Shown: positions 1,853 through 59,801, counted from the stretch's first letter. The stretch: DNA of 64,000 bases from an uncultured Chloroflexia bacterium (GCA_963828165.1 CAWHDR010000001.1:896001-960000), one strand, 5' to 3'. Numbers and translations: made by a program. The notes: generated by a model not told the origin, from the letters alone.

Positions 1853-2181
1853 CCCCCGAAGAGATCGATGGCCTGATCCAGGCCCTCACCGTCTTCACGC
1901 TCGCGATCCTCGTCGGGATCGCGGTGATCAGCAAGGTCCCAGCGACCCTGCACACGCCGTTGATGTCGGGTGCCAACTCCATCCACGGGATCGTCCTGGT
2001 CGGGGCGATGCTCATCGCGCTCGAGGCAACCGAGCCGGTCAGCCAGCTGCTGTCGCTGGTGGCCGTGGCCTTCGCGACGATGAACGTCGTGGGCGGCTAT
2101 GTCGTGACCGATCGGATGCTCCAGATGTTCCGCAAGAGGCCGACCGCGCCCGTGGCGCCGGCGCCCGAGTCCGAGGCCTAG
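1849..2181 (+). CDS. NAD(P) transhydrogenase subunit alpha, part 2 (membrane)
   Basis: LHTPLMSGANSIHGI and NVVGGYVVTDRML motifs; ATGA overlap with pntA. Confidence 0.93.
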   Translation: MTPEEIDGLIQALTVFTLAILVGIAVISKVPATLHTPLMSGANSIHGIVLVGAMLIALEATEPVSQLLSLVAVAFATMNVVGGYVVTDRMLQMFRKRPTAPVAPAPESEA

Positions 2182-2184
2182 CCC

Positions 2185-45562: not shown

Positions 45563-45643
45563 CGACTACCCGATCCGTGAAGCCGTGTTGCGCGAATGCC
45601 CGCCCGAGTGCAGCGAGATCGCGTCCGTCGAGTCTAGTCTCCC

Positions 45644-45677
45644 AAATGAAGAAGCCGCCGGACCTGCCGGCGGCTTC
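45644..45677 (-). terminator. Intrinsic terminator after the erpA/iscA-like gene
   Basis: GAAGCCGCCGG-N5-CCGGCGGCTTC followed by TTCATTT on the minus strand. Confidence 0.75.
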
Positions 45678-45698
45678 GAGTCGGTATTGCTGCGAGGA

Positions 45699-46115
45699 TC
45701 AGTGGGAGCAGCCCTTGGGCGACCCCGTGTCGTCCGCTGTGCGGAAGCTGGAACCGCAACCGCAGGCCGCGACCGCGTTGGGGTTGTTCACGGTGAACCC
45801 GGCGCCCATCAGCGTGTCGACGTAATCGATCTCCGAGCCCTGCAGCAGCGCGATGCTCTGACCGTCGACGTAGACCTTGATGCCACTGGCCTGGAGGACC
45901 TTGTCCTCAGGGGTGGGCGCGTCTTCGAGCATCATCCCGTAGCGGAAGCCCGAGCAGCCGCCGGAATACACGTACACGCGCAGACCGATGTCCGGATTCG
46001 TCTCGTCCTTGGTCAACTCACGCAGCTTGCTGGCCGCAGCGTCGCTCAGGGATACGACCGTGCCCGGGTCGAGGATGGGAGTCGGCTCGACGACGGTCGG
46101 CTGCTGTTCGATCAT
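45699..46115 (-). CDS. A-type Fe-S cluster carrier (ErpA/IscA/HesB family)
   Basis: GGCSGFRY, IDYV, NPNA..ACGCGSSF. Confidence 0.95.
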   Translation of the reverse strand: MIEQQPTVVEPTPILDPGTVVSLSDAAASKLRELTKDETNPDIGLRVYVYSGGCSGFRYGMMLEDAPTPEDKVLQASGIKVYVDGQSIALLQGSEIDYVDTLMGAGFTVNNPNAVAACGCGSSFRTADDTGSPKGCSH

Positions 46116-46161
46116 GCGGGTTCGTCCTCCTTCGGACGGGGCTGGTGGTATTCAAGGAGTC

Positions 46162-46189
46162 GATTCCAGAGTCGCTGCTCTGTATCGTA
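46162..46189 (-). promoter_or_regulatory. Putative erpA promoter with imperfect palindrome
   Basis: Minus-strand TACGAT -10 box overlapping GATACAGAG-N6-CTCTGGAATC. Confidence 0.4.
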
Positions 46190-46239
46190 CGCACGGCAAC
46201 GGGTTTCGACAAGCGTCGCGCCGAAATCCGATGGTCCCC

Positions 46240-46310
46240 CGTGAGGGGTCCATGAGGATGTCAGCTCCAAGGACGGCCGGATGTCACCACTAAAGGGACG
46301 GGACACGTCA
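46240..46310 (+). repeat. Left terminal repeat with three G(G/T)(A/C)C-N5-6-A(T/C)GTCA sites
   Basis: Sites at 46248-46263, 46271-46286 and 46296-46310. Confidence 0.7.
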
Positions 46311-46374
46311 GTGGTGATTGGGACCTCGCGATCGTCGGTCGGGTCTCCGATACCCGGATGACTGAGGGAGCCCG

Positions 46375-46758
46375 CTACCGATTCAGTCGAAAGTAGGTGC
46401 GGCTCCCGATTTCCTTGCCATCGAGCTGATACCTGCCTGACGCCCAGCGTTCTGGCCGCGTCATGACGGTGTACCAGACGAGTTGCCCGAAGAACATCGC
46501 GGACCGATCGAAGTCTCCGCGCGCCGCCTTTGTGTAGATGGGCTCGAACGGAGTTCCTGTCCAGTCGCTGCCGGGTAGCCATCCCGCCGTCGCGATCTCC
46601 GCTCCCTCCTGGTCGATGAGCTCGTTGATGCGCGTGACCATCGCGTCGAACTCGGCCTCGGACAGGCGCCCACGCAGCGCGTCGAAGTCGGTTCGGTACG
46701 GCATCCGCTCGATGACCTTGCCAGTGTCGATGTCGATGAGCATGGCGTCGCCGTCCAT
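46375..46758 (-). CDS. Hypothetical protein (first cargo gene)
   Basis: Intact, Trp/aromatic-rich ORF (GWLPGSDWTGTPFEPIY...FFGQLVW...RTYF); start 46758 or 46743. Confidence 0.75.
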   Translation of the reverse strand: MDGDAMLIDIDTGKVIERMPYRTDFDALRGRLSEAEFDAMVTRINELIDQEGAEIATAGWLPGSDWTGTPFEPIYTKAARGDFDRSAMFFGQLVWYTVMTRPERWASGRYQLDGKEIGSRTYFRLNR

Positions 46759-46886
46759 CCTGCAGCCACAGTCCTTCTGACCGAGGCGGACCAGGCGTAT
46801 CTCCGCATTGCGGAACAGCGACGACGAGGTCGTCCGAACTAAGGCGCTTCGCCCGTGCCGTGGTCAGGCGGACCGACAAGCGATCG

Positions 46887-47364
46887 TCATCGTGTCGAAC
46901 CTCCGATCGAGGCGTCGCCTCGTGCTTCGATCGTCGGGGGCCGTGCGGGGACCGAGGGCGCTTCGTGCGCCTGTTCGGACGACACTGGGCGCGCGGTCAG
47001 GCGGCCGAAGACGATCGTCGTGGCGATCGGGATCCAGAGGTACAGGGGCGCGAACACGGTGAGGTACTGCCCGATATCGACCGGCTCCATGAAGAGGAAG
47101 TGGTCGAGGTCATTGGCCACTCATCAGGCATCGCCCATGCCTGCCCGACGGCGAACACCTCCGGGCACTGAGCCCTGCCCGATCCGGCGCACGTAGTCGA
47201 CGGCGAAGAAGACTACCAAGAGCACGAGGACGAGGCGCCGGATCGACGGGAAGGACGGTGCCGACGTGATCGCGTCGGGAAGGAACTGGGCAATGCCGAT
47301 GAACCCGAACCAGATCCACCAGATGAGGAACCCGTACGCGATCGCACGGATGGGGCGCTGGCAT
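46887..47364 (-). pseudogene. Frameshifted membrane protein
   Basis: Hydrophobic segments RAIAYGFLIWWIWFGFIG, LVLVLLVVFFAVDY and YLTVFAPLYLWIPIATTIVFG do not lie in one open frame. Confidence 0.6.
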
Positions 47365-47561
47365 GTTGATGACTCCTAGGGGGCCGCGACATGGGACGGC
47401 GCGACTTGCTGAACTTCATACGAGCCGGTCGATATCAGGCGGGTACCTCGAACGCGTCGTTCGATCGCGTGCCGTCGTGATGGCGTCACAGGGCGAAGCT
47501 GTAGATGGGACGCCTCGATCGCGTCGAAGGAAAAGGCCTGTCAGCGGCCCTCTGCGGGAGA

Positions 47562-47919
47562 TCAGCGTCTCGACGGGACTCGCCAGGCAACGGCGATCCC
47601 GGCGAAGGAGCAGAGCGATCACCGCCATGTGATAGACGATGTTGGGGACGGTGTTCGGACCGAGGCGCCGAAGAGCCATATAGAGGCCGATGGAGGCGCC
47701 GACCAGAGCGAAGCAGGGTTGAGGCGAGCCCTCCCCACCGAGCCCCATCCCTGCCGAAGAAGGTCAGCTTATCCCCACCACCAGCACTACGGCGACGCTC
47801 GATCTCGTACATCGCGCCTCGTTGAACGGGCCCGGGATCACGAGCCCGGAGTGCAGCGCCGCCAACCCGAGTAAGGACAGGGCCGCGACGGCCATGATCG
47901 AGCGAAGCGTGCGTGTCAT
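47562..47919 (-). pseudogene. Frameshifted small membrane protein
   Basis: MTRTLRSIMAVAALSLLG / LTFFGRDGARWGGLA / ALVGASIGLYMAL...YHMAVIALLL spread over different frames. Confidence 0.6.
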
Positions 47920-48093
47920 GGAATTGGCCCCGCGAGTGGATTGCAGCTCGAAGACGGGTCGGCCGTGGGCCGCAGCCACCGGGTCATTGAGATCGACGCC
48001 ATCCACGGTGCGAATGAACCAGACGCCCAAGGGGACGCTTCGCGCGAGCCCGCCGAGATCGTCTCGGAGGAAGCGGAGCTCGCAGCGTCCGCC

Positions 48094-48162
48094 ATCCACA
48101 TGCACAGATTGTGGATCCAGCCGACGCAGGTGTTTCACATCGCACGACGTCGACGGCAGCAT
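48094..48162 (+). promoter_or_regulatory. LysR-type box plus promoter, copy 1 (upstream of MFS)
   Basis: ATCCACA-N9-TGTGGAT, TTCACA-N17-CAGCAT. Confidence 0.65.
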
Positions 48163-48218
48163 CGGTGTTCGACCACATCACATCTGAGTTTGCGCAGGTG
48201 TGTCCATGATCTGAACAG

Positions 48219-49853
48219 ATGACGGAGATGACGATGACAGCCTCGACTGACAACCCCAGGGCCGGCCGCAAGGAGTGGATCGGTCTGGGCGTCCTCGCCC
48301 TGGCGGCGCTGGTCTATGTCATGGACCTGACGGTCCTGCACTTGGCCGTCCCCGCCCTCAGCGCGGATCTCCAGCCGAGCAGCGCCGAGCTCCTGTGGAT
48401 CATCGACATCTACGGTTTCATGGTCGCGGGGCTCCTGATCACGATGGGTACGCTCGGCGACCGGATCGGCCGGCGCAGGCTCCTGATGATCGGCGCCGCA
48501 GCGTTCGGAGCGACGTCCATCCTTGCGGCGTTCTCGACCAGCTCCGAGATGCTGATCGTGAGCCGAGCGTTGCTGGGCATCGCTGGCGCGACCCTTGCCC
48601 CCTCGACCCTTTCCCTCATCTTCAGCATGTTCACCGACCCCGGGCAGCGTGCCCGCGCCATCGCCATCTGGGTCTCGGCCTTCTCGGTCGGCAGCGCGGT
48701 CGGCCCGATCCTCGGGGGCCTCCTCCTGGAGCACTTCTGGTGGGGTTCGGTCTTCCTGCTGGCACTGCCGGTCATGGCCTTCCTGCTGATTCTCGGTCCG
48801 CGGCTGCTGCCTGAGTATCGCGACCCGGACGCTGGGCGGCTGGATCTGATCAGCGCAGCGCTGTCCCTCGTCAGTCTCCTCGCGGTGATCTTCGGTCTCA
48901 AGCAGATCGCCCAGGACGGCATCGGTCCGCTGCCCGTCGGTTCGATCGTCGTCGGTCTGGTTTTCGGCGGCCTGTTCGTCCGTCGCCAGCTCACCCTGAC
49001 GGATCCGATGATCGATGTCCGGCTGTTCCGCATCCCCTCGTTCAGTGCCGCCCTGGTGGTCAACTTCCTGGCCGTCTTCGTGGCCTTTGGCTACTTCCTG
49101 TTCGTGGCCCAATACCTCCAGCTCGTGATCGGCCTGACGCCGCTGGAGGCGGGCCTCTGGTCGGTGCCCTCGGCGATCGGCTTCATCATCGGCTCTCAAC
49201 TGGCGCCGCGGCTCGTGCGCCTGGCTCGCCCCGCCTACGTGATGGGCGCCGGCCTGGGGCTCGGGGCGATCGGGCTGGGCCTGCTGACCCAGGTCGGCGG
49301 AGGTGATGGCCTGGCCGTCGTCGTGGCTGGCTCCATCATCATCTCCCTCGGACTCGGACCCGTCTTCGGGCTGACCACCGAGCTTATCGTCGGCTCGGCG
49401 CCGCCCGAGCGGGCGGGGGCTGCCTCCGGCATCTCGGAGACCGGCGCGGAGGTCGGCGGAGCCCTCGGGATCGCGCTCCTGGGTAGTGTCGGCGTCGCCA
49501 TCTACCGAGGCGCGATGGCCGATCTGCCGCCCGAGGTTCCGGCCCAGGCGGCAAGCATCGCCCGCGATACCCTCGGCGGCGCGACGGGCGTCGCCGCGGT
49601 ACTCCCCGCGGAGCTTGCCGCGACCGTGCTCGCGATCGCGCGCGAGGCATTCGTGGACGGGATGCAGGTGGTGGCCGGGATCAGCGCGGCGGTCGCCGTC
49701 GGTGTCGCCATCCTGACCGTGGTCATGTTGCGCAACGTCCGCTCAGATGGCCCACTCTCGGGGATCGAGCCTGGGAACGAACCCGCCACGAGCGGCGACG
49801 AGCGGCCGCACCTCGGAGCCCGACCATCTGCTGCGCCGATCCCGGAAGCCTGA
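48219..49853 (+). CDS. MFS drug:H+ antiporter (DHA2, SmvA/QacA-like)
   Basis: MDLTVL..AVP, LLWIIDIY, GTLGDRIGRRRLL, GPILGG.LLEHFWWGSVF. Confidence 0.93.
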   Translation: MTEMTMTASTDNPRAGRKEWIGLGVLALAALVYVMDLTVLHLAVPALSADLQPSSAELLWIIDIYGFMVAGLLITMGTLGDRIGRRRLLMIGAAAFGATSILAAFSTSSEMLIVSRALLGIAGATLAPSTLSLIFSMFTDPGQRARAIAIWVSAFSVGSAVGPILGGLLLEHFWWGSVFLLALPVMAFLLILGPRLLPEYRDPDAGRLDLISAALSLVSLLAVIFGLKQIAQDGIGPLPVGSIVVGLVFGGLFVRRQLTLTDPMIDVRLFRIPSFSAALVVNFLAVFVAFGYFLFVAQYLQLVIGLTPLEAGLWSVPSAIGFIIGSQLAPRLVRLARPAYVMGAGLGLGAIGLGLLTQVGGGDGLAVVVAGSIIISLGLGPVFGLTTELIVGSAPPERAGAASGISETGAEVGGALGIALLGSVGVAIYRGAMADLPPEVPAQAASIARDTLGGATGVAAVLPAELAATVLAIAREAFVDGMQVVAGISAAVAVGVAILTVVMLRNVRSDGPLSGIEPGNEPATSGDERPHLGARPSAAPIPEA

Positions 49854-49888
49854 CCACCGCCTCGTCGATCGACCGAAGGGAGTCCCTC

Positions 49889-50560
49889 ATGACCACCTCC
49901 GCCGCCATCACAAGCGTCGTTTCGACCCGCGCCCGGCCAGACCGTGACAGTCGCCGATCGTTGGCTGGCACCGTGACCGCTGGGCGCATCGAACACCAGC
50001 CCCCGGCGGGCCGCCCGTGGGCCATCCACCGCTGGCCGACCGCGGCCGGCATCCTCCTCGCGGCATCCTTCGCCGCGGGCATCAGCTTGGGATTCGCCGG
50101 AAGCACCGACATCGCGCAGGTCGTCACGGCCTCCGGTTTCGTCTACCTCGGCGCCGCGGCGCTCGGGCGGCGCATGGCCGCGTGGCCGTTGTTCCTAGTC
50201 AGCTTCGGGCTGATCACGATCGGCTTCCTGGTCCCCGGGTTCGACCCTTCGTTGTGGATGCTCGGCACCGTGGCCATCCTCGTGGTCTACGGTCTGGTGC
50301 AGGGCGGGCTGCGAACACCCTGGGGTATTCCGTTGCAGGCCGCGGCGATGATCGTGCTCGCTGCCGTCGCGATCACCGCCGCCAACCTCGTCGCGCCCTG
50401 GGCCGGACTGGTGGTCAGCACGGCCCTATTCGGGCACGCCGCCTGGGACATCTACCACCATCGCGTCGACCGCGTCGTCGCACGCTCGATGGCCGAATTC
50501 TGCGGAGTGCTGGACACCCTGCTCGCACTCGTCGTCCTGGTCGTGACCTTCACACGGTGA
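49889..50560 (+). CDS. Hypothetical membrane protein
   Basis: About six TM segments, GHAAWDIYHH...AEFCGVLD motif. Confidence 0.75.
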   Translation: MTTSAAITSVVSTRARPDRDSRRSLAGTVTAGRIEHQPPAGRPWAIHRWPTAAGILLAASFAAGISLGFAGSTDIAQVVTASGFVYLGAAALGRRMAAWPLFLVSFGLITIGFLVPGFDPSLWMLGTVAILVVYGLVQGGLRTPWGIPLQAAAMIVLAAVAITAANLVAPWAGLVVSTALFGHAAWDIYHHRVDRVVARSMAEFCGVLDTLLALVVLVVTFTR

Positions 50561-50787
50561 ACCACGAAATGAATGGGAGATGCCGCCGTAGTCATCAGCC
50601 GCAGGCTGTTCGACCTGAGTTAGCGGCTGGAACGGCAAACCCGCCGCGGACCTCGATCAGCGGCCGGCGTTCAGGTTACAAGTCCCGCTTGTCCGGGCAT
50701 TCCGGCCCGATCTTCAGCCGTGGCGCAACGTGTCGACGGAAGCTGGCAAGGTCAGACCCAACCCCAACCAAGAAGGAAACCGATGGC

Positions 50788-51167
50788 ATGACGCAAACAA
50801 CCGACGAGGTCATCGACCGCTTCAATCGGGCGTTCCAAGAACGGGACGCCACCCTCCTCGTGGACAGCATCGCCTCCGACTGCGTCATGGAGAGCGTCCA
50901 GCCAGCCCCAGACGGCACACGCTACGAGGGCTATGAGGCTTCGTTCAGCTCGTGGAAGGCGCTCATCGACGACACCGCCAGCCATTTCGAGGTGGAGGAC
51001 GTCCGCACCGGCGACGAGTGGGCACTCATCCGCTGGCACTAGGTATGGGGTCCGGGCACCGAGGACTCGGTCGTGGCGTGAACGTCATGCGGGTTGTCGA
51101 TGGCAAGATCGTCGAGGCGGCCGGCTCTTCAAAGACTGCGCGGATCGTCGCCGCCCTAGAGAGCTGA
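50788..51167 (+). pseudogene. SnoaL/NTF2-like protein, nonsense codon plus frameshift
   Basis: IDRFNRAF...PAPDGTRYEG...RWH, TAG at 51040-51042, then RGVNVMRVVDGKIVEA in a shifted frame. Confidence 0.8.
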
Positions 51168-51221
51168 CCGAACGATGACCACCATCAACGCCAACGAGGT
51201 CGCCCTGGGCGCGGGTATGTC

Positions 51222-51806
51222 ATGACCGACCAGAGGCCGTTCACCTACCATGTCTTCATCGGTACGAGCCTGGACGGGTTCATCGCCCGTGCCAACGGTG
51301 ACCTAGAGTGGCTCACCAGCCGGGGCGAGGCCGCCGGCGAGTATGGGTTCCAGGAGTTCATCGACAGCATCGACACCGTCGCGATGGGCCGCGTCACGTA
51401 CCAGAATTGGCTGGACTTGGGCACCGAACAGTGGCCGTTCCACGGCAAGCACGTGGCGGTAGTCAGCTCCCGGCTGGTCGCCGACGACGACGCGCGCATC
51501 GCGGTCTACCGGGACGTGGACCAGCTGCTCATGAGCCTGTTCGACCCGAGGGGCCAAGAGCGTCTACGTCGACGGGGGCGGGTCATCCGGGAGTGTCTGC
51601 AAGCTGGCCTGATCGACGACATCACGAGCACGACCGTCCCGGTCCTGATCGGGAGCGGGATCCCGTTCCCCGGCGACCTCGACGCCGATATCCCGCTGAT
51701 CCACCATTCGACCAAGGTGTTCGGGGCCGGTCTCGTCCAGTCCTCGAATGTAGTCGACCGCTCACCATCCGCCGGCAAAAGCGGCGTAATCCTACCCGGA
51801 GCCTGA
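51222..51806 (+). CDS. Dihydrofolate reductase / RibD-C family protein with compensating frameshifts
   Basis: IGTSLDGFIA, MGRVTY, VPVLIGSGIP; the expected VYVDGG motif lies in an adjacent frame at 51545-51580. Confidence 0.75.
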   Translation: MTDQRPFTYHVFIGTSLDGFIARANGDLEWLTSRGEAAGEYGFQEFIDSIDTVAMGRVTYQNWLDLGTEQWPFHGKHVAVVSSRLVADDDARIAVYRDVDQLLMSLFDPRGQERLRRRGRVIRECLQAGLIDDITSTTVPVLIGSGIPFPGDLDADIPLIHHSTKVFGAGLVQSSNVVDRSPSAGKSGVILPGA

Positions 51807-51863
51807 CACTCGTCACCTGCGCGAGACAGTCAACCCGAATCCTTCGGGGCCTACAATCAGATC

Positions 51864-52808
51864 TTGTGGAGTGACCGTCCGGCCGGACACCTGCCGCCCA
51901 TCGAGATCGAGCCGCCGATCGACGTCCGACAGCTGCGGTACTTTCTTGCGCTTGCCGAGGAGCTCAATTTCACTCGTGCCGCGGCGAGGCTCCACATCGC
52001 GCAGCAAGCACTCAGTTCGTCGATCAGAAACCTTGAACAGACGCTCGGTGTAGTTCTCTTCGCTCGCAGCACGCGGCACGTCTCGTTGACGAGCGCTGGG
52101 GAAGTGCTCGTTCCGGCCGCCCAACGGATCCTCGCCGATTTGGCCGACGCGCTTCATGCAGTGGAGCAGGCGGCCGCTGGTCGTCAAGGGCGGCTAGTCG
52201 TCGGCGTCGCGATCGCGGTCCACGGGACTCACCTGGTTCGCGAAGCCATCCGGCGGTTTGGCGAGCAGTCGCCGGGCGTGGACCTCCAGATCGTCGGGTA
52301 CGACCATTCCGATCCGTCAGCCGGGCTGGCGAGTGGGTCGAGCCAGGCAAGCTTCGTGCTGGCTCCACTCACGGTCGACGGACACGAGTCGGTGACGGTG
52401 CTCCGGGAGACGCGTCATGTGATGCTCCCGGCGGAACATCCCCTCGCGAAGCGTGACCAGCTGCACGCTCGCGACCTGTCTGGCATGCCCTGGCTTCGTG
52501 TGCCGGCCCCCGACAGCCCGTGGACCCGATTCTGGTTCCAGCATCCCCTCGGTGAGCCCTCGAGCGGACCGGAGGTCCACTCGGGCGTGGACTGGGTTCC
52601 CGCTGTCGCGTCCGGGCGTGCGGTTGGCTTTAGCCTGCCGACGCTGGTTGGGGATTATCTTCCGCCTGACATCGTGACCGTGCCTGTCGTCGACATCGAG
52701 CCGGGTTCTGTCCTGCTGGCGTGGCCGAGCAGCACCGCCGAGGAAGTCGTCCACATGTTCGTTTCGACGGTTCGTGAGGCTCTCGTCGAAATGGCGGCCG
52801 TCGAGTAG
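51864..52808 (+). CDS. LysR family transcriptional regulator
   Basis: VRQLRYFLALAEELNFTRAAARLHIAQQALSSSIRNLEQTLGVVLFAR; start uncertain. Confidence 0.93.
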   Translation: MWSDRPAGHLPPIEIEPPIDVRQLRYFLALAEELNFTRAAARLHIAQQALSSSIRNLEQTLGVVLFARSTRHVSLTSAGEVLVPAAQRILADLADALHAVEQAAAGRQGRLVVGVAIAVHGTHLVREAIRRFGEQSPGVDLQIVGYDHSDPSAGLASGSSQASFVLAPLTVDGHESVTVLRETRHVMLPAEHPLAKRDQLHARDLSGMPWLRVPAPDSPWTRFWFQHPLGEPSSGPEVHSGVDWVPAVASGRAVGFSLPTLVGDYLPPDIVTVPVVDIEPGSVLLAWPSSTAEEVVHMFVSTVREALVEMAAVE

Positions 52809-52819
52809 GCGACGGCCAG

Positions 52820-52888
52820 ATCCACATCCGCCGGTTGTGGGTTGCGCAGGAACCTGTGTTTCTCATCGGCTGCGGACCCCTGCAGGAT
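52820..52888 (+). promoter_or_regulatory. LysR-type box plus promoter, copy 2 (upstream of multicopper oxidase)
   Basis: ATCCACA-N9-TGTGGGT, TTCTCA-N17-CAGGAT, same spacing as copy 1. Confidence 0.6.
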
Positions 52889-52983
52889 GGGGGTCGGCGA
52901 GGCGTGGGCTAAGGGACTGCCCAAGCCGTATCGCCGGCGATCTCGGAGGAACGCGAGACGTTGTCTACCACCCTGGAGACGGC

Positions 52984-54639
52984 ATGCAGCGGATGAGCCA
53001 CCACCCAAGCGACGAAACCGGACAGTTCTCGACGGACGTCTCGGGCCTGCCTCAGGCGGAGCCGACCCCGATCGTCGACCTGCCCAACGGCGGTCAGTTC
53101 GACCTGCGCATCGCGCCCGTTGCGCAGAGCATCGGAGGCAACGTGGTCCGGAGACTCGCCTACAACGGATCGGTGCCGGGTCCCACGCTGCGCGTGAAGC
53201 AAGGATCGGAAACCGTCGCCCACGTAAAGAATGACGGCGACGTCGATGCGACCGTCCACTGGCACGGCCTGCGCCTCGAGAATCGGTACGACGGCGTCCC
53301 GCACGAGACACAGAAGCCGATCCCGGTCGGCGGGAGCTTCACGTACCGAGTTCGCTTCCCCGACGAAGGGCTCTACTGGTACCACCCGCACTTCCGCGAG
53401 GACTACGCGCAGGACATGGGGCTGTACGGGAACATCGTCGTGGAGCCCAGAGATCCGAACTACTGGCCACCGGTCGACCGCGATCTCGTGCTCGCGGTCG
53501 ACGATGTGCTCCTCCAGGGCGGGCTGGTCGCCGCGTACGACCGATCGGGACCCGACCACGTCGCCATGGGCCGGTTCGGCAACGTCCTTCTCGTGAACGG
53601 GCGGTCCGACTGGGAGTTCGACGTCAGGCGCGACGAGGTGGTCCGCTTCTACCTGACGAACACGGCGAACACGCGCGTCTTCAACCTCGCGATCGCGGGC
53701 GCCCGGATGAAGCTCGTCGGAGGCGACGGGGGCCGCTATGAACGGGAGACCCTCATCGAGGAGGTGCTGATCGCGCCCTCAGAGCGCGCGGTGATCGACG
53801 TCTTGTTCGACCGGCCCGGAGCGGCGACACTGGAACACCGCACTCCGGAGCGAACGTACTCGCTCGGGCGGATCGCCGTCCTGGAGGACGCGGTCGACTC
53901 GAAGGCGGCGGGGGAATTCCCGACGCTGCGGCGAAGTCCGGAACTCGAAGCCGAGCGAACCGCGATCTCGGTCGACCTCGAGCGGGAACCCGACAAGATC
54001 CTGGCTCTCGTCGCCGCGATGACGATGACCGCGCCATCCTCCGAGTCCGATTCGGCCGATACGGCGTTCGCCTGCCCGATGCATCCGGACGTTGTGAGCG
54101 CCGACTCAGGTCGGTGTCCCAAGTGCGGGATGAAGCTCCTCCCGATCTCGATGACGGCGAGCGAACTCGTCGTAGCACCTGATTCGATGGACCACCACCA
54201 GCACGGTCGCGCCTCCAGTGGCTCCCAAGCGGCCGACAGCATCGAGTGGGAAGACACGATGGAGGACATCAACCGGCAGTCGAACCCGGGCAACATGCGA
54301 TGGATGCTCTTGGATCGCGAGACCGGCAACGTCAACGCCGCCATCGACTGGTCGTTCCGCGTCGGCGATCGGGTGAAGATCCGGCTGGTGAACGAGATGG
54401 ATTCGGATCACCCGATGCACCATCCATTCCACATCCACGGTGCGGGCCGGTTCCTCGTCCTGGCGCGGGCTGGAGAGGTCGAAGCCAACCTCGTCTGGAA
54501 GGACACGGTGCTGGTCCGGACCGGCGAAGTCGTCGACATTCTCTTGGACGTTTCGAACCCTGGCCTGTGGATGGCTCACTGCCACATCGCCGAACACGCC
54601 GAGGGCGGGATGATGTTCAGTTTCCGGGTCGCGAGATGA
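52984..54639 (+). CDS. Multicopper oxidase with internal heavy-metal-binding domain
   Basis: HWHG, YWYHPH, HPFHIH, HCHIAEHAEGGMM; internal CPMHP...CPKCGM. Confidence 0.93.
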   Translation: MQRMSHHPSDETGQFSTDVSGLPQAEPTPIVDLPNGGQFDLRIAPVAQSIGGNVVRRLAYNGSVPGPTLRVKQGSETVAHVKNDGDVDATVHWHGLRLENRYDGVPHETQKPIPVGGSFTYRVRFPDEGLYWYHPHFREDYAQDMGLYGNIVVEPRDPNYWPPVDRDLVLAVDDVLLQGGLVAAYDRSGPDHVAMGRFGNVLLVNGRSDWEFDVRRDEVVRFYLTNTANTRVFNLAIAGARMKLVGGDGGRYERETLIEEVLIAPSERAVIDVLFDRPGAATLEHRTPERTYSLGRIAVLEDAVDSKAAGEFPTLRRSPELEAERTAISVDLEREPDKILALVAAMTMTAPSSESDSADTAFACPMHPDVVSADSGRCPKCGMKLLPISMTASELVVAPDSMDHHQHGRASSGSQAADSIEWEDTMEDINRQSNPGNMRWMLLDRETGNVNAAIDWSFRVGDRVKIRLVNEMDSDHPMHHPFHIHGAGRFLVLARAGEVEANLVWKDTVLVRTGEVVDILLDVSNPGLWMAHCHIAEHAEGGMMFSFRVAR

Positions 54640-54803
54640 TCAGCCGCACGGCGCGGAAGACCTCACAGCCATGATCCACCGGCGCGATCGATAGCCGACG
54701 TTCACAAGCGGCCTGTCGTCCACGAGGCGTCCCGACGCCCCGTAGTCCCTGCTTGTCGCCCCCACAGGGGCAAGCAGTTTGAGCGAGTTCATCGGAGGTG
54801 ATC

Positions 54804-55388
54804 GTGTCAGCATCAGTGCTCTACATGTCAATGTCCCTCGACGGATACATCGCCGGTCCGAACGACGGACCGGACAACCCCGGCGGCGACGGCTTCGACC
54901 GGCTGCACGAGTGGATGTTCATACCGGGCACATATGACGTCCCGCTGTCCGGCCCGGGCCGGGACCTGTTCGACGAGATGGACGCGACCGTCGGTGCCCT
55001 GCTGGCGGGTCGGCGTACTGTGGAGCAGGTCGATCATTGGGGCGGAGACAATCACGGCTGGCCGATCTTCGTGCCGAGCCACCGGCCGCCGGGTCCATCC
55101 GTGGCGAACTATCCCTTGGTGACGTATGTGGCCGACGGGATCGAGAGCGCGATGGCGCAGGCGAAGGCTGCAGCCGGAGATAGAGTCGTCCTCGTGCACG
55201 GTGCGTACACGGCACAGCGCGCGCTTCAGGCCGGCGTCCTGGATGAGTTGCAGATTCATCAGATTCCCGTGCTGCTCGGTGGTGGTCGTCGATTGTTCGA
55301 TGTCTTGCCGTCGCGCGTCGAGTTGGACGTCGTTCGGGTCATCGACACCCCTAAGGCAACCCACATCCGCTACCGCGTCCGCCGCTGA
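54804..55388 (+). CDS. Dihydrofolate reductase / RibD-C family protein
   Basis: MSMSLDGYIAGP, DGIESA, HQIPVLLGGGRRLF; GGAGG RBS. Confidence 0.9.
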   Translation: MSASVLYMSMSLDGYIAGPNDGPDNPGGDGFDRLHEWMFIPGTYDVPLSGPGRDLFDEMDATVGALLAGRRTVEQVDHWGGDNHGWPIFVPSHRPPGPSVANYPLVTYVADGIESAMAQAKAAAGDRVVLVHGAYTAQRALQAGVLDELQIHQIPVLLGGGRRLFDVLPSRVELDVVRVIDTPKATHIRYRVRR

Positions 55389-55467
55389 GCCGGATCTCGA
55401 GGGTCGAAGTCGAGGCGCGTGCCCAAGCGGCTCGCGGTGTCCGGCGGTGGCCTCTCGCCGCTTCACC

Positions 55468-55536
55468 ATCCACATGTGCCGCTTGTGGATCCAGCCGAAG
55501 CAGGTGTTTCACAGCCGCACAGTTCGACTGCAACAT
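55468..55536 (+). promoter_or_regulatory. LysR-type box plus promoter, copy 3
   Basis: ATCCACA-N9-TGTGGAT, TTCACA-N17-CAACAT. Confidence 0.65.
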
Positions 55537-55613
55537 CAGGGTCCTGATCCTGGAGGTGGCGCATCTAGGGCGCCTGCCGGACGACCACGGCCGCTGGCCA
55601 CCCTCGGCTGACC

Positions 55614-55865
55614 ATGAACGGAGTCACGACCATGCATCTCCTCTTCTACGACCTCGTCATCGCATCCGAGCGCGAGCACTCGAGCAAATGCGAATACGAC
55701 CGGTTCGCGGCCCTCGCCGCCCTGCGGGAAGGTGACCGTTCGTGGGTCCGGCACAAGCTCGCGGTGGCGCTGGCGGGCGTGAGCCGTGCCAGCGCGGCGG
55801 GCGTGCGCTGGCTCGATGCCTGCCTCGCCGACGACCTGGTGGCACACATCGCGGCGAACCGCTGA
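55614..55865 (+). CDS. Small hypothetical protein
   Basis: ORF downstream of promoter copy 3; GGAG before the second ATG. Confidence 0.55.
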   Translation: MNGVTTMHLLFYDLVIASEREHSSKCEYDRFAALAALREGDRSWVRHKLAVALAGVSRASAAGVRWLDACLADDLVAHIAANR

Positions 55866-55929
55866 ACCGGCCCGCGCGTGACATGTGCACCCGTAGGCGC
55901 AGCGAACACTCGCAGCCACGGAGGACCTC

Positions 55930-56316
55930 ATGAAGATCACCGCGTCAGCGCTGTCACTCAACGTCGCCGACGAGCGGGCGTCCGCGCAGTTCGCCCGTGA
56001 CTACCTCGGATTCGTCGAGGAGATGGCCGATGACGGATTCGTCTCGCTGTCCAGACCGGACGCTGGCTTCAACCTCATCTTTCTGCGCACAGGGCTGAAG
56101 ACCTTCAAGCCGGACCACCTGCGCGGCCACGCCGCGGACGGCCTGTTGGTGGTCTTCGTCGTTGACGACGTCGACGCCGAGTTCGCCCGGCTGCAAGCCG
56201 CGGGCGTTCCCATCACGACACCGATCGAGACCGAACCGTGGGGTGAGCGCTACTTCCAGATGAGCGACCCGAATGGGGTTGTGATCCAGCTGGTGAAGTG
56301 GATGACCCGAGCATGA
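55930..56316 (+). CDS. VOC/glyoxalase family protein
   Basis: SLNVAD..AS..F...LGF, FVVDDVDA, EPWGERYF...DPNG. Confidence 0.92.
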   Translation: MKITASALSLNVADERASAQFARDYLGFVEEMADDGFVSLSRPDAGFNLIFLRTGLKTFKPDHLRGHAADGLLVVFVVDDVDAEFARLQAAGVPITTPIETEPWGERYFQMSDPNGVVIQLVKWMTRA

Positions 56317-57773
56317 CCGAGCATGCAGTGGTTATCGCCGGCGGCGGCCCGACCGGGATGATGCTCGGAGCCGAGTTGACGCTCGCAGGCGTCGACGTCG
56401 TCATCGTTGAGCGGCGCGTGGACAAGGTTCGCATCCAGCCCGGTGCGCTCGGCCTTCATGCACGCACGATCGAGGTGTTCGACCAGCGCGGCATCGCCGA
56501 CCGCTTCCTCGCCGAAGGCAAGGCCATGCAGGTGATGGGGTTTGCCGGCGTGCATTTCGACATCAGCGCGTTCCCGAGCCGCCATCCCTATGGCCTTGCA
56601 CTGATCCAGAAGCACAGCGAGCGGATCCTTCTCAACTGGGCCGAGGAGCTCGGCGTCCCGTTCCTTCGTGGCGTCGAGGTGACGGGATTCGCCGAAGACG
56701 CCTCCGGCATCCACGTCGCGCTCAGCGACGGCCGGTCCTTGCGGGCACACTACCTCGTGGGCTGCGACGGCGGCCGCAGCCTTGTCCGCAAGGCGGCCGG
56801 CATCGCGTTCCCGGGCTCGGATCCGACGCTGAGCCATCTCCTCGCCGAGGCTGAGCTCACAGGCGAGCCGGAGTGGGGCCTCCGTACCGACGAGATCGGC
56901 ACCCACGCGCTCAGCAAAACAGAAGACGGCAAGGTCGGGATATTGGTGACCGAACGCGGCGTCGGCACCGTAGAGCCCACGCTCGACGATCTGCGCGAGG
57001 CGCTGATCGCCCACTACGGGTCGGACTACGGCGTCCGCAACCCGAGCTTCATCACGCGGTTCACCGATTCTACCCGGCAGGCCGAAACCTACCGCAAGGG
57101 CAGGGTACTGCTCGCCGGCGACTCGGCTCACATCCACTACCCGGCCGGTGGGTTCGGCATGAATCTCGGCATCCAGGATGCAGTCAACCTCGGGTGGAAG
57201 CTCGCGGAGGTGGTCAAAGGAACCGCGCCCGAGGCGCTGCTCGACACATATCACGCCGAGCGGCATCCGGTCGCCGCTAGTCTCATCCGCTACCCCATGG
57301 CGACTGTTGCCCTCGGCCGCCACGACGACCGCACGAAAGCACTGAACTCGATCGTCACCGAACTCGTGAACATGGACGAAGCGCGGAAGACCATCGCCGG
57401 CCAGATGTCGGGCCTCGCCATCCACTACGACCTCGGCGACGGGCACCCATTGCTCGGGCGCCGGATGCCCGATCTCGAGCTCGGTACCCCCGGTGGTCCG
57501 CTGCGGGTCTTCGACCTGCTCCACGATGCCCGGCCGGTGCTGCTCAACCTCGGGGATTCCAGCGCCATCGACATCACGGCTTGGGCCAATCGGGTTCGGC
57601 TGGTCGACGCCACATCTGAAGGCCCATGGGAGCTTCCGGTCCTTGGTCCTGTTCCTGCTCCGGCGGCCGTGTTGATCCGGCCCGACGGATATGTCGCCTG
57701 GGTGGGGGACGAGACCCAGCCGGGGCCCGCTGGCGCGCTTACCACCTGGTTCGGACCGCCTACGGCGGCGTAG
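56313..57773 (+). CDS. FAD-dependent aromatic monooxygenase (Rox/PheA-TfdB-like)
   Basis: GGGPTG, VGCDGGRSLVRK, GRVLLAGDSAHIH.PAGGFGMNLGIQDAVNLGWKLA, LIRPDGYVAW. Confidence 0.92.
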   Translation: MTEHAVVIAGGGPTGMMLGAELTLAGVDVVIVERRVDKVRIQPGALGLHARTIEVFDQRGIADRFLAEGKAMQVMGFAGVHFDISAFPSRHPYGLALIQKHSERILLNWAEELGVPFLRGVEVTGFAEDASGIHVALSDGRSLRAHYLVGCDGGRSLVRKAAGIAFPGSDPTLSHLLAEAELTGEPEWGLRTDEIGTHALSKTEDGKVGILVTERGVGTVEPTLDDLREALIAHYGSDYGVRNPSFITRFTDSTRQAETYRKGRVLLAGDSAHIHYPAGGFGMNLGIQDAVNLGWKLAEVVKGTAPEALLDTYHAERHPVAASLIRYPMATVALGRHDDRTKALNSIVTELVNMDEARKTIAGQMSGLAIHYDLGDGHPLLGRRMPDLELGTPGGPLRVFDLLHDARPVLLNLGDSSAIDITAWANRVRLVDATSEGPWELPVLGPVPAPAAVLIRPDGYVAWVGDETQPGPAGALTTWFGPPTAA

Positions 57774-57912
57774 AGGACCGGATTCCAAGATGGGTCGGCG
57801 GCTCGGTGCTGCTCAACATCCTGTGTGTCCGAGGTCTTCGACGATGGAACAAGCCGATCACCGGCGAGCTAAACATGTGACATGAGTGTCCCGGCGAGCG
57901 TGACATGCTCAT

Positions 57913-57940
57913 GTACCCCTCACACCGGTGTGAGGGGTAC
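57913..57940. repeat. Perfect 28-bp palindrome formed by two abutted element ends around CCGG
   Basis: GTACCCCTCACA-CCGG-TGTGAGGGGTAC. Confidence 0.85.
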
Positions 57941-58553
57941 GTCACGATGTCATGTCTGTCAGGGCGCGTCGTCGACTTGCAGGTCCATAGGCCATGGATC
58001 AGCGTCACACACCACGAACGCGCCGTCGGCGTTCAGGGCGGGGCTGTTGGGGTCACCATCCGAGAGCACGATAATGCGCGTTCCGGTGGTACCGCGAACG
58101 CTACCTGTGGCGTCCAGGACCTCGAATTGCCCACCGTCTGTCGCACGGATCTCCCAGCCGTCGGGCACGTCGAGCGGCACGGGGTCGGAGGGAAGGTTGT
58201 GCTGAATGCTCCTGAAGACCGGCCGCCCGTTCTCGGCAACAAGGTTGCCGTGGAACTGTTCCAGCGAGCATCCCACGACGTCATCGTGAGCGCTACGTAC
58301 CGTCTGCGAACACGCGACGAGCGCGAGGGACAGCACGAAACCGACGGCATTGGCAACGACCGCGCGGTGGGATGCGGTGAGGGTGCGCATGGCGCGATCA
58401 TCCCTTCCAACATCGGCGGCGGCAAACGTCTCTCGGCCCGACTGGAGTGCGATCGCGACCACTACCTCGACCAACCGCGTATGACGCATAGGGCCGAGTA
58501 GAACACTTGACACGCCTGTCCCGCGAGCGTGACATGCTCGTGAACCCCTGACA
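57929..58553. mobile_element. Putative non-autonomous mini-element, unit 2 (625 bp, one passenger gene)
   Basis: Begins TGTGAGGGGTAC...ATGTCA, ends TGACATGCTCGTGAACCCCTGACA, flanked on both sides by CCGG. Confidence 0.7.
57959..58390 (-). CDS. Putative lipoprotein (passenger of unit 2)
   Basis: Lipobox LVAC; two further Cys; P.GW...VLDATG.V motif. Confidence 0.65.
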   Translation of the reverse strand: MRTLTASHRAVVANAVGFVLSLALVACSQTVRSAHDDVVGCSLEQFHGNLVAENGRPVFRSIQHNLPSDPVPLDVPDGWEIRATDGGQFEVLDATGSVRGTTGTRIIVLSDGDPNSPALNADGAFVVCDADPWPMDLQVDDAP

Positions 58554-58570
58554 CCGGGGGTTGGCGGTGC

Positions 58571-59801
58571 CTACTCCTCGATGCGTTCCACGATCGTCGC
58601 GATGCCCTGGCCGACGCCGATGCACATCGTGGCGAGGCCGTAGCGACCACCGGTTCGCCGCAGCTCGTGCGTGAGCATCGTGATCAGGCGGCCGCCGCTC
58701 ATCCCCAGCGGATGTCCGAGCGCGATCGCGCCACCATTCGGGTTCACCGTGGCCGGGTCGAGCCGCAGCTCGTCGATGACCGCGATCGACTGCGACGCGA
58801 AGGCCTCGTTCAGCTCGACGACGTCGAGGTCGTCGATGCCGATCCCGGCGCGCTCGAGCGCCTTGCGCGTGGCGGGCACCGGGCCGATGCCCATCACCGC
58901 CGGGTCCACGCCGGCGACGGCGGTCGACACGACCCGGGCGAGCGGCTTGAGACCCAACTCGCGGGCCCGCTTCGCCTCCACGAGCAGGACCGCCGAAGCG
59001 CCGTCGTTGATCCCGGAGCTGTTGCCGGCCGTGACCGACCCGCCGTCCTGCTTGAACGCCGGTCGGAGCTTCGCCAGCGCTTCGGCGGACGTGTCGGCGC
59101 GGGGATGCTCGTCGCGCGCGACGGTCGTCGTCTCGCCCTTGCGCCCGGCGACCTCGACCGGGACGATCTGGCCGTCGAACCTGCCGCGCCTCGATCGCCG
59201 CGACGGCGCGACGCTGGCTCTCGAGCGCGAAGGCGTCCTGGCGCTCGCGGTCGACGCCGTAGCGCTCCGCGACGTTCTCCGCCGTCTCGCCCATCGAGTA
59301 CGGGTAGTACATCTCGGCGAGCTTGGGATTGAGAAAGCGCCAGCCGAGCGTCGTGTCCTCGACCTCGCGTGGCCCGCGGTCCCACGCGTTCGCGGGCTTG
59401 GCCATGACGTACGGGGCCCGCGTCATCGATTCCACGCCGCCGCCGATGAACACGTCGCCGTCCCCCACGGCGATGGCGTGGGCGGCCGAGTTGACTGCCT
59501 GCAGGCCCGACCCGCACAGCCGGTTGACGGTCAACCCACCGACCTCGACCGGGAAGCCGGCCAGCAGGACCGCCATCCGGGCGACGTCGCGGTTGTCCTC
59601 GCCCGCCTGGTTCGCGCAGCCAAGGATCACGTCCTCGACCAAGGAGGCGTCGATGCCGGCGCGGTCCACGACGGCCCGAAGCACGAGCGCAGCGAGGTCG
59701 TCCGGCCGGACGCTCGCGAGCGCCCCGCCGTAGCGGCCGATCGGGGTACGGACCGCCTCGACGATCCAGGCGTCGCGGAGGGTTCGGTTCGAGTCAGGCA
59801 C
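58571..59801 (-). CDS. pcaF: 3-oxoadipyl-CoA/acetyl-CoA thiolase (PcaF/PaaJ), apparent +1 frameshift at about 59188
   Basis: [53 protein letters not shown], split over two frames. Confidence 0.9.

Follow-up and report, generated by a model that had tools for sequence, protein, structure and literature searches.

A stacked pair of transposase-less TGT...ACA units upstream of erpA in an uncultured Chloroflexia bacterium, probably members of one family of mobile insertion cassettes

Multi-site ends that start with TG and finish with CA are bound by integrase-fold (rve, DDE) transposases and cut at TG/CA, as in IS3, IS481, IS21, IS1202, Mu, and Tn7. In IS21 elements, the TG..CA ends contain several terminal repeats (3 on one side, 2 on the other), duplications are 4-8 bp long, and tandem junctions form; IS3 duplications measure 3-4 bp. 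Tn7-like elements combine TGT ends bearing arrays of binding sites with 5-bp duplications, and encode tnsABC and a target selector. Tn7-like elements build islands at their attachment sites (PMC11014353). The ISAba32 subgroup of the IS1202 family consists of autonomous 1.5-kb ISs that target XerCD sites (bioRxiv 10.1101/2022.12.17.520857; PMC10132070), with duplications of 5-6, 16-17, or 27-28 bp (bioRxiv 10.1101/2022.12.17.520857). Mobile insertion cassettes (MICs), including the qnrD and qnrS2 mic elements and Tn3-derived TIMEs, are portrayed in part of the literature as having an identified parent IS or transposon and as usually small and few (PMC3913671, PMC5444012, PMC2600179, PMC4133298).

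We analysed a 64,000-nucleotide stretch (the window) of G000, a 3.31-Mb assembly of an uncultured Chloroflexia bacterium that is 87.7% complete; all genomes used are metagenome assemblies. The four related ends reported by a first-pass annotation were recovered with the letters it gave, at 46240 (+), 57924 (-), 57929 (+), and 58553 (-). They form two inverted pairs that bound units of 11,685 bp (46240-57924) and 625 bp (57929-58553), and the CCGG that the annotation placed between and after the units directly follows each of them (57925-57928 and 58554-58557). A 24-nt degenerate pattern, allowing up to 3 mismatches, matched exactly these 4 sites in the window, compared with 0.00 expected from 100 shuffles. 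The pattern scan found no further copies in the host assembly, where the other regex matches were discarded as noise (4-5 mismatches each). The four ends score 27-51 bits with model R1. The features of the site are as follows.

45699..46115, - strand, erpA, Fe-S cluster insertion protein, left neighbour (Fe-S_biosyn E 4e-18; ErpA NF010147 118.8 bits, cut-off 117)
46116..46239, no strand, erpA upstream flank; homology to relatives stops at ~46237, conserved GGTTTCGACAAGC motif ~25 nt from the element tip
46240..57924, + strand, large unit, cargo only, bounded by inverted ends
46240..46310, + strand, B-type end of the large unit, sites 46245-46263, 46271-46286, and 46295-46310 (R1 35.9 bits, E 2e-9)
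57877..57924, - strand, A-type end of the large unit, terminal and one subterminal site (R1 51.1 bits, E 3e-14)
57925..57928, no strand, CCGG between the units, left of the two target-duplication copies around the small unit
57929..58553, + strand, small unit with inverted ends, alone at the same site in a metagenome contig (X2)
57929..57969, + strand, small unit's end on the B side, with the terminal site alone (R1 27.1 bits, E 1e-6)
57959..58513, - strand, sole ORF of the small unit, 184 aa, no family match
58506..58553, - strand, A-type end of the small unit (R1 43 bits, E 1e-11)
58554..58557, no strand, CCGG after the small unit, right copy of the target duplication
58571..59801, - strand, thiolase (pcaF-like), right neighbour, frameshifted near residue 205, read in two frames

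Two types of end can be distinguished, and each unit has one of each. The long conserved A end (~50 nt) comprises a terminal site running from TGTGAGGGGT to ATGTCAC, a 7-nt spacer, and a second GGGACA..ATGTCA site. The 3-site B end has the same terminal site and up to 2 additional GGAC..ATGTCA sites. With sites spaced ~23-25 nt apart and numbering 2 versus 3, the ends are asymmetric. As the annotation noted, extra GGAC..ATGTCA-type sites occur at three of the four window ends, namely 46240 (46271-46286 and 46295-46310), 57924 (57877-57894), and 58553; the 57929 end has the terminal site alone. The left tip of the large unit reads CGT instead of TGT and the flank before it CCCC instead of CCGG, so that this unit has no clean target duplication (CCCC/CCGG). 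The two end types, the CGT tip, and the CCCC flank, like the second hot spot described below, lie outside the first-pass annotation. By analogy with the groups named above, the ends would be bound and cut by an integrase-fold DDE transposase.

Comparison with relatives places the breakpoints at these ends. The large unit is absent at all 20 relatives' loci examined, and its GC content is 64-67% versus 68-72% in the flanks. At 8 of the 20 loci, erpA and the thiolase gene are 53-68 nt apart and represent empty sites; empty sites with a single CCGG, as the annotation anticipated, do exist in relatives. Homology to relatives ends at 46237 and picks up again at 58569-58578, and given the 53-68 nt spacing in relatives, the break falls exactly at the outer ends. 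In the thiolase gene, Thiolase_N is confined to residues 12-207 of the long frame (Pfam; three-frame translation).

The X2 contig (1449 nt, depth 10.8), from a soil-metagenome run, aligns to 45925-46238 and 57935-58560 and omits 11,696 bp. Its order is erpA flank, CCGG, small unit, CCGG, with the large unit missing; this key joint of erpA flank to small unit comes from one assembled contig of one run. Relative to the window, the small unit is ~97% identical (17 differing letters in 626) and the erpA flank ~87% (39 in 314), a contrast that may be inflated because the flank piece is partly intergenic. Since the contig carries the small unit alone, the two units are separate insertions, the small one being the earlier. 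The 625-bp unit entered a CCGG ~25 nt from the conserved motif upstream of erpA, duplicating that CCGG, and the 11.7-kb unit came later, precisely between the erpA flank and the B end of the small unit. The outcome of this second insertion is the observed head-to-tail arrangement, in which CCGG separates the units.

The large unit carries the following cargo.

46375..46863, - strand, ORF of 162 aa, no family match
48219..49853, + strand, MFS transporter (MFS_1 E 1.5e-46)
50017..51042, + strand, frame with a weak SnoaL-like C-terminal part, gene call uncertain (SnoaL_2 23.9 bits, below the cut-off of 27)
51222..51806, + strand, RibD_C-domain reductase (domain search)
51864..52808, + strand, LysR-type regulator (HTH_1, LysR_substrate)
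52774..54639, + strand, multicopper oxidase with a heavy-metal-binding domain (Cu-oxidase_3, Cu-oxidase_2, Cu-oxidase, HMBD)
54798..55388, + strand, second RibD_C-domain reductase (domain search)
55930..56316, + strand, glyoxalase/dioxygenase-fold protein (domain search)
56298..57773, + strand, FAD-dependent aromatic-ring hydroxylase (FAD_binding_3 E 2e-81, Rng_hyd_C)

In the small unit, the N-terminus of the 184-aa product looks, by eye, like a lipoprotein signal. The annotation had seen no transposase, integrase, or resolvase ORF, and domain searches of 18 frames picked within 46240-58553 agree (Pfam, 20 frames scanned; NCBIfam, 10 frames). Nor did tblastn with 6 transposases from relatives match the two units or reveal a transposase remnant in them.

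In total, 23 ends were convincing; they come from 9 of 131 genus genomes, 1 sister-genus genome, 1 MAG contig (from the scan of species genomes), and 4 metagenome contigs (4 of 5 metagenome matches were real). Within the genus, the pattern search detected ends in 7 of the 131 genomes and model R1 in 15 at E<=0.01, 9 of them convincing; among 150 further genomes sampled from the order, 1 has a match. Twelve columns are invariant among the first 24 of 18 aligned ends, and 10 A ends from elements with unrelated cargo agree over ~50 nt. At least 9 different cargos share these ends. Those of the relatives' elements include TIR/zinc-ribbon, LuxR/AAA, pterin-4a dehydratase-glyoxalase, EamA, TetR, hemerythrin/PadR, Lgt/TauE, GAF, and hydrolase/RidA/SnoaL. 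The proposal of a family thus holds, with like ends around unrelated cargo in the 9 genus genomes and 6 further contigs. Its supposed non-autonomy is borne out as well, since no transposase adjoins any of the 23 ends and 12 element interiors share no gene (tblastx). Target duplications are CCGG/CCGG for the small unit (window and X2 contig), TGGT/TGGT in G095, and tAGC/cAGC in G097, 4 bp in all three informative cases; matching flanks are missing in 2 of 5 paired elements. One-ended relics occur in G135, G140, G122, and the G095 array, so a large part of the family is in decay and not on the move.

These relics, copies with degenerate tips, and a host genome without a transposase would also be expected if the units were wrecks, that is, autonomous elements that decayed independently and lost their own transposase gene, and not a family mobilised in trans. 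However, no transposase remnant was detected in the window's units or in the scanned frames of relatives' elements, and the interiors have nothing in common. A single unrelated ORF takes up the 625-bp unit, which is nevertheless ~97% conserved between two lineages whose flanks are ~87% alike, subject to the possible inflation mentioned above. Furthermore, exact-pattern scans of species genomes and metagenome contigs returned only ends that flank cargo. Independent decay is therefore very improbable in our judgement.

Instead, the two units are probably separate non-autonomous DNA transposons of one family, MICs with ends around passenger genes and no transposase gene. The family is best read as having asymmetric multi-site TGT...ACA ends, 4-bp duplications, and a marked site preference. 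It shares with MICs, as the accounts cited above describe them, inverted ends around passenger genes, the lack of an internal transposase, a target duplication (here in the small unit and G095), and presumed mobilisation in trans; presence/absence breakpoints fall at the ends. Unlike the MICs in those accounts, it has at least 9 cargos, one 11.7-kb unit, insertions at two chromosomal points, and stacking, and no parent, an autonomous element with matching ends that would supply the transposase, was found.

The family favours a few places, the erpA-thiolase spacer and a point upstream of dnaG. Ends lie within the erpA-thiolase interval in 7 assemblies (G000, G095, G073, L054, L066, L067, and the X2 contig), with differing end variants and cargo, in keeping with the suggestion that this interval was a repeated target. 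CCGG directly precedes the tip in 3 of these 7 and likewise in a weak relic in G005. The erpA-side end of L066 is a reversed, A-type end, so orientation is not strict. Stacking, as proposed from the window, recurs in G095, where a 35-kb erpA-thiolase island contains 3 ends within 1.6 kb, 2 of them abutted 11 nt apart. The second hot spot is just upstream of dnaG, with ends in 5 assemblies (G005, G122, G097, G135, and G140). In G005, G122, and G097, three different cargos have their B tip 38-42 nt from one common motif, a conserved double TTGACA in front of dnaG, the insertion point being upstream of it; the tips vary by a few nt and the flank is not common. Inserts of 0.3-6.4 kb that lack ends of this kind also occur in both intervals, so the clustering may partly reflect permissive spots and not targeting.

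Because both intervals vary even without the repeats, the latter might be operators or att-like recombinase sites that merely border a variable region. G000 does encode 3 tyrosine recombinases and 1 serine recombinase, all outside the window (3 Phage_integrase matches, at C1:454536 and on contig C5, none in the window). This explanation is scarcely credible, since the inverted pairs match the presence/absence breakpoints to the base, run from TGT to ACA, and have 4-bp direct repeats at their flanks. Moreover, there are just 4 copies per genome, more than 440 kb separate them from the closest recombinase gene of their contig, and neither an Rfam family nor a tRNA gene was detected.

Alternatively, the units might be satellites belonging to a targeted, multi-protein transposon like those of the Tn7/Tn5053/Mu type, whose TnsB- or TniA-like transposase and target selector would bind the site arrays and direct insertion to fixed attachment sites upstream of erpA and dnaG. 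The asymmetric, regularly spaced ends, the repeated insertion, mainly in one orientation, at two points of the chromosome, and the tandem piling of units all fit. The TGT ends, site arrays, site- and orientation-biased insertion beside housekeeping genes, and stacked islands resemble Tn7-like elements, and a 733-aa protein of one relative, G087, weakly matches rve and Mu-transpos_C_2. But the duplication is 4 bp and not the 5 bp of Tn7/Tn5053, a TnsB-size gene lies near no end, and the ends of the G087 element differ. No domains of a TnsB/TniQ-type set (tnsB/tniA, AAA+ regulator, target selector), and no tnsABC, were seen in any element scanned. The dnaG tips shift by a few nt without a common flank, and L066 is reversed. 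We consider satellites of this kind improbable.

The other enzyme type named by the first-pass annotation, IS21, has similar repeat number and asymmetry at its ends, a 4-bp duplication, and abutted ends; it differs in that no istA (rve) and istB (AAA+) lie between the ends here. IstA occurs in 13 of 131 genus genomes (9 over the cut-off), none of them end-bearing, and the ends of genus IS21 elements consist of other repeats. Neither of the annotation's candidates for the enzyme, IS21 or the TnsB type, is supported. In G000, two IstB_IS21 matches (frames of 467 and 1029 aa) are located far from the window. For IS3, IS481, and IS1202, TGT tips and the 4-bp duplication fit, and an rve transposase with matching ends was not found. 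With IS1202/ISAba32 elements, the likeness extends to TGT tips, a conserved inner IR block, oriented insertion at a constant distance of a few bp from a specific site, tandem insertions there, and circle junctions with ends separated by the duplication length. The units differ in their 4-bp duplication, lack of transposase, and promoter-proximal spacer targets. An IS1202-like (ISNCY) element of the genus has the end layout of the units (~25 nt + 7 nt + ~18 nt) and the tip TGTGAAC; local ISNCY copies gave no score with R1. In a local tRNA-targeting IS481-like IS, the subterminal site matches the cassette site at 16 of 19 letters, counted by eye. Ends differing from those of the units are seen in the group's IS21, IS481, IS3-like, IS1202-like, and Mu-like elements.

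When 57 loci that carry rve or IS21 genes (31+17+1+8) were scanned with R1, no transposase with matching ends emerged; the sole match, in G233, was a nested unrelated IS. An rve gene is present in 2 of the 9 end-bearing genus genomes versus 46 of 131 overall. The autonomous element for which the annotation suggested scanning was found neither in the genus nor in the order sample (151 genomes), nor by exact-pattern scan of species genomes and of metagenome and viral contigs, nor in plasmids. G000, at 87.7% completeness, contains no rve, DDE_Tnp_1, Transposase_mut, or Transposase_20 match. Because this genome has no rve, DDE_Tnp_1, IS256-type, or IS110-type gene, the transposase is presumably encoded elsewhere and would act in trans from another replicon or another cell line, leaving the units stranded here. 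Since the cognate transposase was not found, we infer rather than observe this mobilisation. Joint use of the outermost ends of stacked or flanking units may give rise to large units and would account for mixed cargo.

Compared with integron cassettes, the units likewise carry promoterless-looking cargo of varied function and form arrays at one site, but where a cassette has one attC, each of them has two inverted ends with a target duplication, and no integrase adjoins the array. It is conceivable, though rather unlikely, that the family is a transposon-based counterpart of integrons, an ends-only cargo pool without an autonomous member, served by one off-element transposase inserting at CCGG-type targets. 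The enzyme would then reside on a plasmid or phage, or be domesticated in the host, and its insertions would fall immediately in front of a few housekeeping promoters and beside resident ends. If so, oriented cassette arrays would be a main route by which accessory genes enter these loci in this Chloroflexota lineage.

Four related ends were found in the window (69% GC; contig C1 of the host assembly G000, which comprises 3.31 Mb in six contigs and is 87.7% complete), at the positions recorded by the first-pass annotation. A degenerate 24-nt pattern allowing up to 3 mismatches recovered exactly these four in the window, with 0 expected from 100 shuffles. No further copies of the ends were detected across the whole G000 assembly. 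They bound two units located between erpA (NF010147, 118.8 bits, with the cut-off at 117) and a pcaF-like thiolase gene.

Features of the erpA-thiolase interval in the window
46240-57924, large unit, 11,685 bp, bounded by ends
57925-57928, CCGG between the two units
57929-58553, small unit, 625 bp, bounded by ends
58554-58557, CCGG after the small unit
58571-59801, minus strand, neighbouring thiolase gene, read in two frames

The ends fall into two kinds. The A ends (57924 and 58553) share approximately 50 conserved nucleotides, in which a 7-nt spacer separates the 25-nt terminal site from a second site, GGGACA..ATGTCA. The B end at 46240 carries the terminal site and two additional GGAC..ATGTCA-like sites, and the end at 57929 carries the terminal site alone. 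Having one end of each kind, both units therefore point the same way, from B to A. The leftmost tip of the large unit reads CGT instead of TGT and its flank reads CCCC instead of CCGG; no single simple change derives this junction from an expected CCGG-TGT junction. No internal ends, which would have pointed to a fusion of smaller units, were detected within the 11.7-kb unit by R1, a sequence-only model built from 18 ends.

The interval was compared among relatives. In a search of 40 relatives with a 15-kb query, erpA adjoins the thiolase gene in most of them. Among 20 erpA-thiolase loci of relatives fetched for comparison, the conserved anchors are 53-68 nt apart in 8, and the homology with the window ends at 46237 and restarts at 58569-58578. 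Aligning the interval, a check proposed in the first-pass annotation, exposed empty sites with a single CCGG in G024, G019, and G004. Logan contigs from four soil metagenome runs were aligned on window positions 45500-59500, leaving unused the depth figures, the uncovered parts, and short joints with sides of <30 letters. One X2 contig, 1449 nt long at a depth of 10.8, matches 45925-46238 and 57935-58560, skipping 11,696 bp, and the seven letters between the matched parts restore CCGG followed by the TGTGA tip. Its organism therefore has the small unit only, with CCGG on either side, and the large and small units are separate insertion events. In the simplest order, the small unit came earlier with a 4-bp CCGG duplication and the large unit later, at the exact joint of the erpA flank with the B end of the small unit. 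The X2 contig differs from the window at 17 of 626 positions in the small unit (about 97% identity) and at 39 of 314 in the erpA flank (about 87%). This difference in identity suggests that the small unit is younger than the split of the X2 and G000 hosts, as judged from one assembled contig whose flank piece is partly intergenic. In runs X1 and X3, the small-unit ORF is present at about 96%, the flanks not being visible there.

Pfam was run on 20 frames from the interval and the adjoining genes, and NCBIfam on 10 frames. The large unit encodes an MFS transporter, a SnoaL-like frame (weak match), two RibD_C reductases, a LysR regulator, a multicopper oxidase with a metal-binding domain, a glyoxalase-fold protein, and an FAD aromatic hydroxylase, together with several frames lacking a family match. 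The small unit is filled by a single 184-aa ORF with no family match. The GC content of the insert is 64-67%, compared with 68-72% in the flanks. Consistent with the earlier reading of the units as transposase-less, no transposase, integrase, or resolvase domain was found in the scanned frames, and six transposases from relatives gave no tblastn match in the interval or in the G000 genome. In the neighbouring thiolase gene, the frames switch near 59170-59200, with residues to approximately 205 in one frame and the C-terminal half in the next. Either the frameshift is genuine or the assembly contains an indel here, a reason for caution over single-base details elsewhere in the window.

The ends were then searched for in related genomes, as also proposed in the first-pass annotation. 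The end pattern with one mismatch allowed was present in 7 of 131 genus genomes, and R1 at E≤0.01 matched 15 of the 131, 9 of them convincingly (G000, G095, G097, G122, G135, G005, G143, G140, and G073). The seven weakest R1 matches in the genus (E 9e-4 to 8e-3) were not counted; six lie in ordinary sequence and one (locus L109) is a possible relic. In an order-level sample of 151 genomes including G000, R1 added one genome from another genus, G233, with an A-like end. None of the conclusions draws on the unpublished genome G373. An exact 20-base pattern searched in one genome per species gave six stretches, five from MAGs of the genus and one new (L054), all titled uncultured Chloroflexia or Candidatus Limnocylindrales. 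A metagenome scan gave five stretches, four of them real (L065-L068) and one (L064; 48% GC, no other feature) a chance match. Viral contigs and plasmid records contained no matching ends. In total, 23 convincing ends were collected, and they bound diverse cargos.

Cargos of family members outside the window
G097, 2.4 kb: TIR/zinc-ribbon protein
G095, 4.2 kb: LuxR/AAA frames
G095 array: hydrolase, RidA, and SnoaL proteins
G005, G135, G140, and L068: pterin-4a dehydratase-glyoxalase fusion
G122: EamA transporter
G143: TetR regulator
L065: hemerythrin and PadR
L066: Lgt and TauE
L067: GAF protein

A tblastx comparison among 12 element interiors revealed no gene in common, only short high-GC noise, and Rfam and tRNA scans found nothing. 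The flanks of paired elements are CCGG/CCGG for the small unit, TGGT/TGGT in G095, and tAGC/cAGC in G097, with no match in G005 or at the large unit. The observation of the first-pass annotation is confirmed and the core of its interpretation supported. The family ends bound unrelated cargos, none of which includes a transposase. The 2.4-kb element of G097, upstream of dnaG, encodes a 666-aa protein that combines a TIR domain with double zinc ribbons (L047 10214-12214, minus strand), which looks like a cassette-borne anti-phage defence gene.

Two landing sites recur. Family ends occupy the erpA-thiolase interval in seven assemblies (G000, the X2 contig, G095, G073, L066, L054, and L067). In G095, an island of approximately 35 kb separates the two genes and contains three ends, of which two abut each other with 11 nt between them. 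An end adjoins the erpA flank in G073 and in L066, a contig from a close relative of G005; an A end runs into the thiolase 3' end in L054 and lies 1.9 kb from the thiolase gene in L067. Since end variants and cargo differ among these loci, they represent repeated insertions rather than a single inherited event. The second site lies upstream of dnaG, where G005, G122, and G097 carry three different cargos whose B tips all lie 38-42 nt from one shared double TTGACA motif; in G135 and G140, the distal A end is all that remains. This conserved double motif, GTATTGACA..GGGGTTGACA (G000 C1:2533560-2533700; L047, L048, L050, and L124), is followed by a near-palindrome around CTTGTCAAGACTTGACAG, and it resembles the motif upstream of erpA, GCTTGTCGAAACCCGTTGCC (erpA coding strand). 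The erpA-side tips lie 25-27 nt from the conserved motif; across the two sites, cassette tips are found 25-42 nt from these motifs. The erpA-side tips of the X2 contig and of G073 directly follow a CCGG, as does a weak end-like stretch at the G005 erpA junction (L025 597-612). The last, at the expected place with E 0.44, is not significant alone and only hints at a family relic. The orientation of insertion is mostly but not strictly fixed: of the 7 cases that could be read, 6 have the B end beside erpA or dnaG, and L066 has the opposite arrangement. Apart from these two sites, the 4.2-kb element of G095 lies approximately 5 kb past the thiolase gene, and its two flanks are adjacent in most genus genomes. 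In other species, both intervals also carry inserts that lack the ends, and therefore the clustering may partly reflect tolerance of insertions there.

Three further loci were noted at the erpA-thiolase interval. A 6.4-kb insert in G005 (L025 ~1478-3519) shows weak model matches every 507 nt (1478, 1985, 2492, 2999, and 3506), which points to a tandemly repeated coding segment. G015 has two copies of the interval (C5 and C7; L026 and L027), each with a similar 2.16-kb insert, reflecting either a duplication or a mixed bin. In G073 (L125 488-4052), a MerR-like HTH protein, hemA, and a fused hemC/hemD lie behind the end at the erpA flank, representing either housekeeping haem genes inside a cassette or a rearranged locus.

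The search for an autonomous element, also proposed in the first-pass annotation, was carried out in the relatives and yielded no transposase with matching ends. Neither rve nor DDE_Tnp_1, Transposase_mut, or Transposase_20 has a match in G000, and the recombinases of this genome lie far from the two units, which are probably stranded there. The 275-kb contig C5 of G000 encodes two tyrosine recombinases and one serine recombinase (10244-10690, 119473-119988, and 160719-161300) and may be a plasmid or integrated element, where a mobility gene acting in trans could be sought. Of the 131 genus genomes, 46 contain rve genes, but among the 9 end-bearing ones only 2 do. When 57 loci with rve or IS21 genes were scanned with R1, filters off, none scored except G233. 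There, an IS3-like transposase lies 130 nt inside the A-like end. We rejected it as the parent, as it belongs to a separate insertion sequence with its own 80-bp inverted repeats, itself struck by an IS110-like element; copies in 8 other genomes showed no R1-type ends.

Some insertion sequences of the genus have end styles related to those of the cassettes. Roughly 15 of the 131 genus genomes carry an IS481-like element (1.3 kb, 404-407 aa when intact) that has inserted at the 3' ends of tRNA genes (L060/L069 of G005, L070-L076, and L094-L096), where direct repeats of ~16-17 bp rebuild the tRNA end and tandem copies occur at one tRNA (L070 and L073). By a count made by eye, 16 of the 19 letters of its subterminal site agree with that of the cassettes; this element, too, forms tandem arrays. 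It was rejected as the parent: although the end style is similar, the tips differ, the duplications are 16-17 bp, and it occurs in 1 of the 9 end-bearing genomes. An IS1202-like element (NCBIfam ISNCY_2; 445 aa, direct repeat ~16 bp, two-site ends; L091 of G112, L088, and L092) has a layout of ~25 + 7 + 18 nt, as in the cassette ends, and the tip TGTGAAC. The genus IS21 copies, one of the groups named in the earlier proposal, have ends made of other repeats. In G087, a 733-aa protein with weak rve and Mu-transpos_C_2 matches (L191 7423-10262, at a contig end) is preceded by a DUF6431/HTH protein, and the pair, inserted into a copy of the IS481-like element, possibly represents a transposon related to Mu or IS21 but of unassigned family. 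The IS1202-like/ISNCY copies, other IS481 copies, IS21, and the G087 Mu-like protein were all rejected, as none has R1-type ends.

According to a preprint on IS1202 (bioRxiv 10.1101/2022.12.17.520857), these elements have TGT tips, insert in one orientation at a constant distance of a few bp from a site, occur in tandem, and form circles in which the spacing between the ends equals the duplication length. So described, this behaviour fits that of the present units. Given the IS1202-type behaviour and the related local end styles, we tentatively assign the enzyme to the integrase-fold DDE group, with the IS3/IS481/IS1202 type as the likeliest and a TnsB-like system as a lesser possibility.

The units belong to a family of transposase-less cargo transposons, that is, mobile insertion cassettes, a kind already known. 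What is unusual is that no autonomous member occurs in any collection searched, that cargos are many and one member reaches 11.7 kb, and that a 4-bp duplication is combined with a strong preference for two promoter-proximal spacers and with head-to-tail stacking. Non-autonomous cargo transposons are usually regarded as rare offshoots of an insertion sequence that is itself known. In the present family, only cargo forms are seen. Their gene sets, nine or more and unrelated to one another, cover among others transport, regulation, the oxidation of metals and aromatics, and a TIR defence-like gene, and they revisit the same two chromosomal spots across species. Both the ends and the pair of target sites are now defined well enough for an enzyme hunt and for tests in a laboratory host. 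If a single trans-acting enzyme moves these units, it would constitute a simple, programmable-looking route for gene addition at safe sites, and would help account for the variation in genome content of a large uncultured soil lineage nearly devoid of insertion sequences.
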